Source: a virus (Duplodnaviria > Heunggongvirae > Uroviricota > Caudoviricetes). Taken from it: a DNA stretch of 11,161 nucleotides. Location of the stretch: IMG/VR virus record IMGVR_UViG_2563366906_000002; one strand, given 5' to 3'. Shown piece after piece: positions 1-3,242 of this stretch. The position numbers and the translations under genes were made by a program. A model generated the notes under the pieces. The model was not told the origin of the DNA, ran no database searches, and saw only the letters and a program-made list of their open reading frames with translations. Each line of letters starts with the position of its first letter. The first letter of the stretch is position 1.

Positions 1-74
1 GTGAAATTACCGACAAGAAGGGAAAGGGCCTTCCCGAGAGTGGTAAAGGAGAGGCCCTGGAAATACCCCACAGC

Positions 75-137
75 CCCGAAAAAGAGCCAGTCAGTTGCTT
101 AACTGACTGGCATTACCCCTTAGGGGGTGATTTTTTT
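75..137. terminator. Terminator-like hairpin cluster at the backbone/cargo boundary, possibly bidirectional
   Basis: Perfect inverted repeat CCAGTCAGTT-gctt-AACTGACTGG (87-110, extendable to an 11-bp stem 86-111). On the minus strand it is followed by a U-rich tract (complement of CCGAAAAAGAG, 75-85). A second short stem CCCC-tta-GGGG (116-126) is followed by T7 (131-137) on the plus strand. Confidence 0.4.
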
Positions 138-304
138 ACATGACTTTTGATTAGCTGACATTGTAAATCCGCATGTATCAGATGCATTGTTTTGCATGTG
201 GAAATGGGTGTTTTCACTGCCAGCTATCGCTACATGTAGCAAAAACACGGGCTTAATAAGAAATCATTCTGCCATAAGGCATAACTTCCCCGCGTGCTCA
301 GGTA

Positions 305-334
305 TTGACGTCATAGATATGGATCTTTTTTAAT
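305..334 (+). promoter_or_regulatory. Candidate sigma70-type promoter for the TIR-domain gene
   Basis: TTGACG (305-310) with TTTAAT (329-334) after an 18-nt spacer. The fit is weak because an AAGG ribosome-binding site (335-338) sits immediately downstream. By-eye assignment only. Confidence 0.2.
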
Positions 335-348
335 CAAGGTATGGTATT

Positions 349-1296
349 ATGAAGATATTTATTAGTTGGTCAGGTCAGGACAGCCTGGAGATAGCAAAAG
401 TATTACGGGATTGGATACCGAATGTTATTCAAGTAGCTGAGCCGTACGTATCAGCGGAAGATATTGATAAAGGCACTCGCTGGGCGACTGATATATCAAA
501 GGAACTTGATGACTCTTCTTATGGGATTATTTGCCTTACAAAAAATAATATTAATGCACCGTGGATAAATTTTGAGGCGGGTGCTTTAGGTAAAAAGGTT
601 GATAAGAGCCGGGTTAGTCCTTTCTTGTTTAAAATTAAACCATCTGAGATAACAGGCCCAATATTACAATTCCAGTATACTCGTTCGGATGATAAGAACG
701 ATATTTTGAAGTTGATGTTGTCAATAAATAATCAAGCAGGATTTTTGACTGAAGAACGCTTAACTAAAGCTTTCGAGCAATGGTGGCCAAGTTTAGAGCG
801 TGAGTTAGATAACATTCAAGATATTAACCCTGTAGATAAAGATTCCACTAAAAAAACAAAAGGTGATTCGACTTCTGAGATACAAAATCTTTCCAAAATT
901 GTTGAAAGTTTGCTGGATATTAGCCGAACAAATCACCAATTATTGCGTGATCCAGCATCATTATTGCCAGAAGAATATGTTAGCAAAATAATAAACAGGG
1001 AAGGGCGTAAAGAAACTGTTTTAAAAATTGTAGCTTCTGATTTATTATCCATGCATCATTCACTAATTCGTGTAAAAAGAAGATTTATTCGCCGTGGTAT
1101 TGATGAAACATCTAGGAGCGAGTTAATTGAATCATTAAATAAAATGATAATGGATTGTTCTAGAGTAATCGCTCACTTAGATAATTATTGTGGGGTTTCA
1201 TCAAACAATATGTTCAATAGTGCGCTTAGATTGCGGACCAGAAATTTAATTGACATGATGGATGAGGAGGATGCAGAACGGGATGAAATGGAATAA
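349..1296 (+). CDS. TIR-domain protein (about 130-aa N-terminal TIR-like domain plus about 185-aa predicted helical, charged C-terminal domain of unknown function)
   Basis: 315-aa ORF with ATG at 349 and AAGG 10 nt upstream. The N-terminus MKIFISWSGQDS...AKVLRDWI...GTRW...YGIICLTKNNINAPWINFEAG follows the bacterial TIR pattern: hydrophobic-FIS-aromatic-S start, then a W-x3-E motif with the putative catalytic Glu at residue 76 (nt 574-576). The C-terminal half matches nothing I recognise. AT-rich codon usage differs from the P2 backbone. Confidence 0.75.
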   Translation: MKIFISWSGQDSLEIAKVLRDWIPNVIQVAEPYVSAEDIDKGTRWATDISKELDDSSYGIICLTKNNINAPWINFEAGALGKKVDKSRVSPFLFKIKPSEITGPILQFQYTRSDDKNDILKLMLSINNQAGFLTEERLTKAFEQWWPSLERELDNIQDINPVDKDSTKKTKGDSTSEIQNLSKIVESLLDISRTNHQLLRDPASLLPEEYVSKIINREGRKETVLKIVASDLLSMHHSLIRVKRRFIRRGIDETSRSELIESLNKMIMDCSRVIAHLDNYCGVSSNNMFNSALRLRTRNLIDMMDEEDAERDEME

Positions 1297-1347
1297 TCAA
1301 TTTTGACTAATCATAAATAATTTTGCATATATAAACTTATAATGCCG

Positions 1348-1370
1348 CAGCCGCTATTTTTCAGCGGCTG
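1348..1370 (+). terminator. Hairpin downstream of the TIR gene, possible weak intrinsic terminator
   Basis: CAGCCGCT (1348-1355), 7-nt loop, AGCGGCTG (1363-1370), 52 nt after the stop codon. The 3' flank TATATCGTTTATAAT is only moderately U-rich, so termination efficiency is uncertain. Confidence 0.3.
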
Positions 1371-1858
1371 TATATCGTTTATAATGGGTATGTTATTTTT
1401 TATTTTGATAAAATCATTAAAATTGTCGATGTTATATGAATGCACATGTATTATTAATGTTAGAAGATTATGCCTGCTTACGGCTATTGTGCTGAATTCA
1501 ACTATGAACGCATCAGTATTAAAATCGTTCCATGAAATGTTCTTCGTCTACAGCAGATGATGGGCAACGAAAAAATGACGCTGAGTGAGTTGGTCGGGGA
1601 GAATTGTTAGAGGTATTTATGGAGTGGTTTAATAATATCGGTCAATCCTGAGTTGCAGCATCACATAGACGATAGGGAATCTCTCCAGTCGTTCTGGAAT
1701 GGCAGCGTTGAACAACAAGCACAGCGAGGCGTTAGATGCCCATCAGATTGACACAGAGGGTTTATGAATCGCTGGGATTTACTTAGTTTGAAAAATAATA
1801 TATTTATATGTTTTTGTATTGTGTTTGTTAAGGAGTTTGGATTGAAAAGAAAACTGAT

Positions 1859-2047
1859 TTGTGTTATGGCTTTTTGGGGGCGTTGCTGGCTGGTTGTAAT
1901 GAGAGTAATAAAAAAGAAGTTGAGGGTTGTATTGAAAGAGGTGTCCAATATTTTATAGAGATTGGTTCTTACCCTAAATTAAGTGATGGGCGTGATGCTG
2001 TGAAAGTTGCTACTGAACGTTGTAATAGAACAATAACGGCTTTCTGA
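1859..2047 (+). CDS. Small putative lipoprotein (lipobox LLAGC, mature part about 50 aa with three Cys); start codon uncertain
   Basis: The frame contains ...GFLGALLAGC|NESNKKEVEGCIERGVQYFIEIGSYPKLSDGRDAVKVATERCNRTITAF. Its stop (2045-2047) is 2 nt before the ATG of the next gene, indicating translational coupling. In-frame starts are non-canonical: ATT at 1841 (5 nt after an AAGGAG Shine-Dalgarno at 1830-1835) or TTG at 1859. The adjacent frame starting TTG 1842 encodes a textbook n-region MKRKLICVMAF and would join this frame via a 1-nt change in the T5G5 run at 1871-1880. Confidence 0.45.
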   Translation: MCYGFLGALLAGCNESNKKEVEGCIERGVQYFIEIGSYPKLSDGRDAVKVATERCNRTITAF

Positions 2048-2049
2048 TA

Positions 2050-2967
2050 ATGGATTATACGAGCTATATAATAGGACAGCTTCAGGTTGAGGATATTATT
2101 GATGCAATTAAAGGCGTTAATAATACTAATGTCATAAAAGATTATGTGCTGCCTGTAGTATTACCAATTATATCTTCTGTGCTGAGTTACTTTATTGCAA
2201 CTAGGTTGTTTTATCGGCAGGAGTACCTTAAAGCACAAAGAAGAAAGGTAAGCGTTGTAAATAAATGTATTTATGACTACTTTTCTGCAATGACAACGTT
2301 GTTGCAAATTAAAGGGAATTATTATGGTGGGGTAAGTATAAGTGAAAATCCTATCGAGAGGGCTTTAGCTTTTCCTGTTGTGGTTTTTTCTGGTGCTCCT
2401 CTATCATCAGATTTAAGTGAGTTTGCCTGTATATTGAGTCAAAAGGGAGTAGGGAATAATAGAGAGACAGCAAAGACTACTAACTGGGGGGATGCTTTTG
2501 CTGTTAGTGATATAGCAAGAAGGTTTAACAGCCTATTGGCTGCATTAAATGTTAGGAATGATTTTGATGACACCTATAGAGGAATGATTATTGAATCAAC
2601 AGGTTCACCTTTGCCTACGATGCGTTTTAAAAATGATGATATTGTTAATGCTATAGGTAGTAATAAGGCAGCTTATTACATTGATATTACTGAGCAAATA
2701 ATGATTATGATAGATGTTTTGTTGCTTGATATTAATCTGTTGCTCAAAGAGTTGCCATTGTATGCTGAATCGCTGTTTGACAAAAGAGTAATGCAAGAAG
2801 ATTCAGGGATTCTTAAATTCAATGATTTGCACGAACGTTTTCCTCTACTTATGAAACCTGTAACGCCACCTTCGATTAAACTCATGTCTGATTATTTGGG
2901 GTACAGTGAAGATGAGATCTTACGACGCTATCCATACCCGTTCTTTAATATGCATGATTGTGAATGA
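2050..2967 (+). CDS. Hypothetical single-pass membrane protein, 305 aa (N-terminal transmembrane anchor, family unknown)
   Basis: ORF with ATG at 2050 and no own Shine-Dalgarno, coupled to the upstream small ORF. One strongly hydrophobic segment YVLPVVLPIISSVLSYFIATRLFY (residues ~32-55) is followed by basic residues (RQEYLKAQRRK). AT-rich codon usage. No motif I can assign. Confidence 0.7.
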   Translation: MDYTSYIIGQLQVEDIIDAIKGVNNTNVIKDYVLPVVLPIISSVLSYFIATRLFYRQEYLKAQRRKVSVVNKCIYDYFSAMTTLLQIKGNYYGGVSISENPIERALAFPVVVFSGAPLSSDLSEFACILSQKGVGNNRETAKTTNWGDAFAVSDIARRFNSLLAALNVRNDFDDTYRGMIIESTGSPLPTMRFKNDDIVNAIGSNKAAYYIDITEQIMIMIDVLLLDINLLLKELPLYAESLFDKRVMQEDSGILKFNDLHERFPLLMKPVTPPSIKLMSDYLGYSEDEILRRYPYPFFNMHDCE

Positions 2968-3071
2968 ATGTGCATATGTCAGAAGCCGTTTTTATTGTCA
3001 GTTATCGTCAGTGCTGGCGCGCTCTTGGAGTGTTCATGCAACTGCATTAAAACCGCCCCACGAAGCGGGCG

Positions 3072-3090
3072 GGCGAGGCGGGGAAAGCAC
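3072..3090. other. cos: cos cohesive-end sequence of P2-type phages
   Basis: GGCGAGGCGGGGAAAGCAC matches my recollection of the 19-nt P2 cohesive end. It lies ~160 bp beyond the 3' end of the leftward portal gene, as in P2. Recalled, not database-checked. Confidence 0.55.
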
Positions 3091-3220
3091 TGCGCGCTGG
3101 CGGTGGTGATGATTGTCTGAGCGCGTCGTGATGGCGTTTAGATTGTGCGCCGGGGCGTTGGTGTGTCTGCGGGGTGTTTTGTACAGTGGCGAGCGTGTGA
3201 GGGCGTGATGACGGGGGTGT

Positions 3221-3242
3221 AAAAAAGCCGCCCGCAGGCGGC
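3221..3242 (-). terminator. Intrinsic terminator of the P-Q operon
   Basis: On the minus strand, stem GCCGCC-tgcg-GGCGGC followed by T6 (plus strand reads A6 at 3221-3226, then GCCGCC cgca GGCGGC). It begins 5 nt after the Q stop codon. Confidence 0.5.

Follow-up and report, generated by a model that had tools for sequence, protein, structure and literature searches.

The window analyzed here (the whole 11,161-nt stretch of IMG/VR record IMGVR_UViG_2563366906_000002) covers the gpA/gpQ cargo hotspot and the late region of a P2-like prophage, as judged from the annotations of M21816 and D7. On the strand presented it carries a TIR-domain gene, a small lipoprotein gene that is split between two reading frames, and a gene for a 305-aa predicted membrane protein, called the partner below (Table 1). 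The TIR gene is the third gene of the "2TM + 1TM + TIR" system of phage AC1, whose lysogens resist lambda, LF82_P8, and P2; a "2TM + 1TM + TIR" clone reproduces this resistance, and in Table S5A of the same study the intact hotspot comprises five genes, WP_023140580 and WP_023140581 among them (Rousset et al. 2022, PMC9122126). The clone, pFD240, ends at window position 1659, with its reverse primer annealing at 1659 to 1683, and therefore the validated clone excludes both the lipoprotein and the 305-aa genes. Window positions 1 to 115 belong to the terminal part of an IS4 element (...CTGACTGGCATTA); in all other records of this cargo, the 185-aa "1TM" gene has its 3′ end there. The TIR gene is therefore cut off from the other two system genes in the window genome, and the IS4 insertion may represent a second lesion of the hotspot. 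A terminator-like hairpin (1347 to 1371) and a promoter-like site (1358 to 1385) follow the TIR gene.

Table 1. Positions of the cargo genes and of the elements of the split lipoprotein gene in the window
Feature	Position	Strand	Basis or remark
TIR-domain gene	349..1296	+	Pfam TIR_2; PADLOC TIR-TM, E 2.7e-118
Shine-Dalgarno AAGGAG	1830..1835	+	sequence; 6 nt 5′ of start codon
Lipoprotein gene start codon TTG	1842..1844	+	alignment, PGAP 68-aa call, phrog_32041 profile
Signal peptide n-region and most of h-region, MKRKLICVMAFWG, frame A	1842..1880	+	translation
T5G5 tract, site of 1-nt deletion	1871..1880	+	T5 1871-1875, G5 1876-1880
Lipobox L-A-G-C (CTG GCT GGT TGT), -1 frame relative to start codon	1886..1897	+	translation
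Mature 50-residue lipoprotein coding region CNESNKKEVEGC...ATERCNRTITAF and TGA	1895..2047	+	out of frame with start here
Premature TAG for ribosomes starting at TTG 1842, T5G5 allele	1956..1958	+	translation
Partner gene (305 aa; a single predicted transmembrane helix, all-helical bundle)	2050..2967	+	prediction

We re-read the region around the frame split, and the positions given in a preliminary description for the Shine-Dalgarno sequence, the TTG start, the T5 run, and the TAG stop all agreed with the sequence. Frame A, the frame of TTG 1842, opens with MKRKLICVMAFW, passes through the T5 and G5 runs, and continues as WGRCWLVV; its full translation to the TAG is LKRKLICVMAFWGRCWLVVMRVIKKKLRVVLKEVSNIL, that is, (M)KRKLICVMAFWGRCWLVVMRVIKKKLRVVLKEVSNIL. 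The adjacent (-1) frame, to which the lipobox and the rest of the protein had been assigned, indeed encodes them: it reads IEKKTDLCYGFLGALLAGCNESNKKEVEGCIERGVQYFIEIGSYPKLSDGRDAVKVATERCNRTITAF, also ...IEKKTDLCYGFLGALLAGCNESNKKEVEGC...TITAF, and closes with the TGA at 2045 to 2047. This frame is shut on its 5′ side by a TAA at 1829 to 1831. The n- and h-regions of the signal peptide and the lipobox thus lie in different frames in the window, and no single frame holds the complete set of lipoprotein precursor features, namely a positively charged n-region, a hydrophobic h-region, and a lipobox of the form [LVI][ASTVI][GAS]C some 15 to 25 residues after the start. The two starts earlier listed for the lipobox frame, ATT 1841 and TTG 1859, are both present but are not the only ones, since TTG 1874 and TTG 1883 are also available; the signal peptide left by either of these would be too short, amounting to almost none.

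Intact forms of the gene were found among close relatives. The 401-bp segment at 1700 to 2100 is present in 15 of 5,426 complete Escherichia coli genomes, with a T5G6 tract in 13 of them, T7G4 in one (strain MS 16-3), and T5G5 only in M21816. Direct inspection identified the extra base of the 13 T5G6 genomes as a G, and their product is a single open reading frame (ORF) from TTG 1842, MKRKLICVMAFWGALLAGC followed by NES...TITAF (68 aa). Because both halves are joined in one ORF in 14 of the 15 complete genomes with the segment, the frame split in the window is more than a chance arrangement. The MS 16-3 copy is the most diverged (93.5% identical) and has an 11-nt tract that keeps the frame; alleles of this type have ATG in place of TTG at the 1842 position and carry T7G4 or T6G5, and the T6G5 form is also present in protein databases. 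Since the position of the T/G boundary alone varies, residue 12 of the signal peptide is W, L, or F. The AAGGAG sequence is kept in every T5G6 and T5G5 record in the alignment, and the MS 16-3 type has AAGGTG. An exact-pattern scan of GTDB species representatives returned no match, and a scan of JGI metagenomes returned one locus only, in frame.

The tract is therefore 11 nt long in relatives (T5G6, T6G5, T7G4) and 10 nt long in the window, from which it follows that the window has lost a G and is not missing a T. Comparison of tract lengths at homologous loci had been proposed in the preliminary description; in the relatives, an 11-nt tract places the 1842 codon and the lipobox in one frame. 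This is not the arrangement that would have refuted its reading, namely an unchanged tract with a conserved start in the lipobox frame, and these in-frame genes bear out its core claim of a single lipoprotein ORF broken by a 1-nt shift at T5G5. Its suggestion that one added T would repair the gene was right in that a T6G5 allele (...MAFLGALLAGC) does exist (L028, P0026), but the common intact allele instead has an added G (T5G6, ...MAFWGALLAGC).

The intact 68-aa product matches phrog_32041, a phage protein family of unknown function, over nearly the whole profile (E 9.5e-38, residues 1 to 68 versus profile positions 1 to 74 of 77), and the window encodes this protein only across two frames. 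The consensus of the intact forms, MKRKLICVMAF(W/L/F)GALL(A/V)GC followed by NES..., describes a prolipoprotein of 68 aa, of which 50 residues form the mature part, with conserved cysteines at two further positions, and all of its lipoprotein precursor features (MKRK, LICVMAF(W/L/F)GAL, and L(A/V)GC) stand in one frame in the intact T5G6, T6G5, and T7G4 alleles. An E. coli homologue with 59% identity (P0004) has its own unrelated but equally typical lipoprotein signal, MNKNTFYIIVIATFLLSGC, and shares the two additional cysteines and the tail ATERCNRTITAF. The window lipobox LAGC aligns with LLSGC of the divergent homologue, the G-C of the lipobox is invariant in an alignment of six sequences, and Cys30 and Cys61 of the precursor are invariant among homologues, along with the C-terminal motif. 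The two halves in the window are therefore one lipoprotein gene, the product of which is predicted to be lipidated. Searches of the lipoprotein against Pfam, NCBIfam, PADLOC, and PDB sequences returned no informative family, and the only matches were to PHROGs of unknown function.

The start codon of this gene is annotated inconsistently. The intact gene is usually called by PGAP as a 94-aa protein from ATG 1764 (WP_023140580), which adds the stretch corresponding to window positions 1764 to 1841. In the MS 16-3 type, PGAP calls the 68-aa form (WP_148713231) from the 1842 position. The phrog_32041 profile alignment begins at residue 1 of the product that starts at 1842, and the sequence 5′ of the 1842 codon is not conserved in the variants P0018, P0020, and P0004. 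The evidence therefore favors the 68-aa form that begins at 1842, and ATG 1764 is unlikely to be the true start. The M21816 and P2_AC1 records have neither a coding sequence nor a pseudogene feature for the frameshifted gene; this locus, left blank in RefSeq and in the P2_AC1 record, would be better annotated as a frameshifted pseudogene of the 68-aa lipoprotein.

The ATG of the partner gene lies 2 nt after the lipoprotein stop (TGATAATG), with no evident Shine-Dalgarno sequence of its own. Given this spacing and the missing ribosome-binding site, the early stop in frame A probably lowers translation of the 305-aa partner, a polar effect by translational coupling that we propose from the gene arrangement. 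The partner has a positively charged cluster after its predicted transmembrane helix, and its AlphaFold model is confident and all helical (pLDDT 88.3). There are 167 remote relatives of the same length. Neither the partner nor 50 of its relatives matched Pfam, NCBIfam, or PADLOC; against the PDB, the partner had no sequence match, and its fold matched only generic helical bundles. No small lipoprotein gene was found upstream of remote partner homologues at any of five loci, and the lipoprotein is thus specific to the enterobacterial P2 branch. Some of these remote homologues (approximately 25% identical), on marine and other metagenome contigs (L044, L045) and on one ENA contig, lie beside a ThsB-like TIR gene and RadC, or beside a type I restriction-modification S subunit and a pentapeptide-repeat protein. 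Such neighbors suggest a defense-island flavor for this unannotated family of at least 167 representatives.

A 1-nt difference in a homopolymer is a classic error site, and with G6 in 13 of the 15 complete genomes, the missing G could be thought a sequencing or assembly error confined to this record. However, T5G5 recurs across records obtained independently with different platforms and pipelines: E. coli M21816, phage P2_AC1 (NC_070903/OV192280), two IMG/VR contigs, and all 10 contigs sampled from Logan, ENA, and NCBI, which come from ten different runs or assemblies, gut metagenomes included. The P2_AC1 genome was assembled with SPAdes from Illumina reads (PMC9122126). The 64-aa product that only T5G5 can encode (P0006) occurs on at least 124 contigs (153 index blocks across NCBI, ENA, and Logan); for the commonest intact product, in its 94-aa call, the corresponding figures are 297 contigs and 675 index blocks. 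T5G5 also cosegregates with linked single-nucleotide polymorphisms (SNPs), which random errors would not do. The window itself is identical to no record found and is 98 to 99% identical to relatives over the portal and terminase genes. An artifact is accordingly extremely unlikely, and we reject the sequencing-error option raised in the preliminary description, given T5G5 in at least five separate records and at least 124 contigs, among them an Illumina/SPAdes phage genome.

We aligned approximately 3.1 kb of the window (115 to 3240) with 32 other records, 33 in all, and compared haplotypes. Thirteen T5G5 records have in common haplotype A, defined by T1196, T1378, A2467, and the absence of a 13-bp insert at 3114. 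The T5G6 records all belong to B-type haplotypes, with C1196, C1378, and, mostly, C2467 and the insert; haplotype A with G6 occurred in none of the 33 records. Two T5G5 records (L009, L016) are mosaics that resemble the B type through position 1396 and haplotype A from the tract on, and a single recombination suffices to explain them. With T5G5 found on one cargo haplotype and these two mosaics, a single deletion followed by spread is a sufficient account of its origin.

The T5G5 lineage is not brand new and has diversified since the frameshift, because a neighboring repeat varies within it and because T5G4 and T6G5 derivatives exist. The repeat lies in the 2TM gene (e.g., L017, 2388 to 2768), where an in-frame hexanucleotide array, ATGGGGAAGCAA(GGCAAA)nGGCAAC, gives proteins of 124 to 130 aa with a variable Gly-Lys repeat; (GGCAAA)n has 2 to 5 copies in T5G5 and T5G4 records and 2 copies in nearly all T5G6 records. 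T5G4 was seen in three assemblies, on haplotype A. In one of them (L026, GCA_053228365.1), 5 nt are inserted early in the TIR gene, at the equivalent of window position 367, and the annotation begins this gene farther along, as a 311-aa product; the added lesion suggests that the hotspot cargo as a whole is decaying in this strain. T6G5 on haplotype A is represented by L028 (GCA_038401845.1), which equals the window over the approximately 3.1 kb save for one added T and encodes MKRKLICVMAFLGALLAGC; second-site frame restoration is the most parsimonious reading of this allele. A G-to-T change at window position 2424 (Leu to Phe in the partner, SELAC to SEFAC) is common only to L017 (T5G5) and L028 (T6G5), and it tags the subhaplotype that gained the frame-restoring T. 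Every other homopolymer that varies in length within the 3.1 kb is intergenic, and the G6 run of the partner gene does not vary. Positions 3109 to 3215, an intergenic stretch that separates the 305-aa and portal genes close to where cos is expected, hold a cluster of SNPs, the haplotype-linked 13-bp indel at 3114, and a G5/G4 polymorphism at 3213; the mosaic patterns there point to frequent recombination between related prophages.

Taken with the intact relatives in frame, the inheritance of T5G5 and its linkage to a haplotype favor the genuine frameshift that the preliminary description had listed among its options. We therefore consider it highly probable that T5G5 is a natural, inherited loss-of-function (pseudogene-type) allele of a small cargo lipoprotein gene of P2-like prophages. 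The G6 run that encodes part of the signal peptide h-region has lost one G, presumably by replication slippage at the run in one P2-like prophage sublineage, and the haplotype A prophages would then have spread between E. coli hosts. Ribosomes starting at TTG 1842 therefore read into WGRCWLVV... and terminate at the TAG, so that the lipobox and mature domain would not be made, or only in traces.

The frameshifted allele could in principle still yield a functional lipoprotein, either by -1 slippage on GCU UUU UGG, which would give ...MAFLGALLAGC, or by initiation at ATT 1841 or TTG 1859. The P-site tRNA-Phe is able to re-pair on the overlapping UUU one base back, and T5G5 remains fairly frequent, with the downstream ORF intact. 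However, T TTT TGG does not fit the X XXY YYZ heptamer pattern, since tRNA-Trp cannot re-pair on UUG, and the 83 nt downstream (1878 to 1960) fold more weakly than all 200 shuffled versions (minimum free energy, -6.4 kcal/mol; z score, +1.8). An Rfam search found no element, and no Shine-Dalgarno-like stimulator lies within 15 nt 5′ of the slip site. Programmed -1 frameshifting is known in E. coli dnaX and in insertion sequence transposases. The window shares with these systems a U-rich run on which a P-site tRNA could slip one base back, but it lacks their heptamer, their hairpin or pseudoknot, and their Shine-Dalgarno-like stimulator, and its two-frame layout is not conserved. The out-of-frame layout is instead derived and in the minority, the in-frame state being ancestral and the majority one in complete genomes (14 of 15) and in most contigs.

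Alternative initiation fares little better. ATT 1841 stands 5 nt from a strong Shine-Dalgarno sequence, and its product, IEKKTDLCYGFLGALLAGC, is still weakly lipoprotein signal-like, but ATT is a very poor initiator and TTG 1859 is preceded by no Shine-Dalgarno sequence. Continued production of the lipoprotein from T5G5 by either route is very unlikely. Ribosomal slippage, one of the options first proposed, finds no support given the noncanonical slip site, the unstructured downstream region, and the in-frame state of most homologues, and we found no positive evidence for the noncanonical initiation proposed with it. Trace expression from T5G5 may occur, and nothing suggests that selection has acted for it.

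The several tract lengths seen in nature raise the further question of whether the tract is a slippage-prone ON/OFF switch (a contingency locus), with G6 and T6G5 as ON states and G5 and G4 as OFF states, varying the lipoprotein together with its coupled partner. Contingency loci are known from poly-G and poly-C tracts, typically at least 7 to 8 nt long, in genes for surface proteins and restriction-modification systems of Neisseria, Haemophilus, and Campylobacter. Like them, the locus studied here encodes an envelope protein, changes frame between ON and OFF at a G run in the 5′ part of the gene, and occurs with several natural tract lengths. Four indel states occur in nature (T5G6, T5G5, T5G4, and T6G5), which takes at least three indel events within a stretch of 10 to 11 nt, and this is the sole coding homopolymer with indels in the 3.1 kb of the 33 records. 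The apparent +T reversion on the exact window haplotype and the close spacing of the lipoprotein stop and the partner start (2 nt) would also fit a switch, and the occurrence of three indel states on haplotype A may mean toggling more often than expected of a plain pseudogene.

On the other side, runs of 5 to 6 nt are far below the length of classical contingency tracts, the OFF state T5G5 is limited to one haplotype for which a single origin is enough, and a divergent orthologue (L039) has no G run in the signal region. G4 takes the gene another base away from the original frame, and one of the G4 records also has the broken TIR gene, a pattern more like decay. Exact look-ups for -1 and +1 products found none on approximately 200 T7G4/T6G5 contigs (cluster 4, MS 16-3 type) or on B-type haplotypes, and no G7 product in the collection; length variants on other allele backgrounds were thus not seen. 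We regard a dedicated switch as unlikely. The fuller version of this proposal, in which a low-rate reversible switch would toggle a previously unrecognized two-gene phage exclusion or defense module, made up of a periplasmic lipoprotein and a coupled single-pass membrane protein, in P2-like lysogens and the natural OFF (G5, G4) and regained ON (T6G5) states would reflect alternating selection (for example, cost versus protection from competing phages), is likewise improbable. Of the earlier alternatives of an inactivated or a phase-variable gene, then, inactivation stands, and phase variation is weakly supported at best, given the confinement to a haplotype and the lack of frameshift products elsewhere. 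As read from these alleles, the tract is a mildly slippage-prone site in a gene under apparently weak selection, and not a dedicated contingency tract.

The inactivated allele has many of the properties of homopolymer frameshift pseudogenes in prophage and accessory genes of Enterobacteria: a 1-base deletion in a short run, a derived minority allele, linked SNPs, and secondary lesions in the same lineage (T5G4 and the 5-nt insertion in the TIR gene). It is unlike them in that the lesion falls inside a signal peptide, where both halves look meaningful, and in that haplotype A also includes a natural +T restoration. By itself, the frameshift looks like an ordinary slippage mutation that raises no new question.

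The lipoprotein and the partner occur together in all three types of cargo: with the TIR gene (the window type), without it (MS 16-3), and as the sole cargo between gpA and the portal gene (E. coli CP058063). The partner is intact in 12 of 12 sampled T5G5 and T5G4 loci, with no sign of module-wide decay. The terminator-like and promoter-like elements after the TIR gene suggest that the pair is a transcription unit separate from it. A single system made up of the TIR gene and the gene pair was considered and rejected, because the pair occurs without the TIR gene, a terminator-like hairpin intervenes, and the validated clone excludes the pair. The pair shares with the AC1 "2TM + 1TM + TIR" system its hotspot and phage lineage, and P2_AC1 has the same T5G5 tract, but the pair lies outside the validated clone and is also found without TIR.

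From its location and architecture, the pair is most likely a phage exclusion or defense module of the P2 gpA/gpQ hotspot. Small lipoproteins that act in phage exclusion include Llp of T5 and Cor of phi80 and N15. The lipoprotein described here is like them a small, cysteine-containing lipoprotein encoded by nonessential cargo of a temperate phage, at a locus known for exclusion and defense genes. It differs in having no detectable similarity to annotated families and in always being paired with a membrane protein of approximately 290 to 305 aa.

P2_AC1, which carries T5G5, is a viable, plaque-forming temperate phage, and the phage therefore does not need the pair. The phenotypes of AC1 lysogens are uninformative on the intact lipoprotein and its 305-aa partner, since AC1 carries the broken allele. 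The pair is thus a compact candidate module of the P2 defense hotspot, for which natural null alleles (G5, G4) and a natural restored allele (T6G5) exist for comparison.
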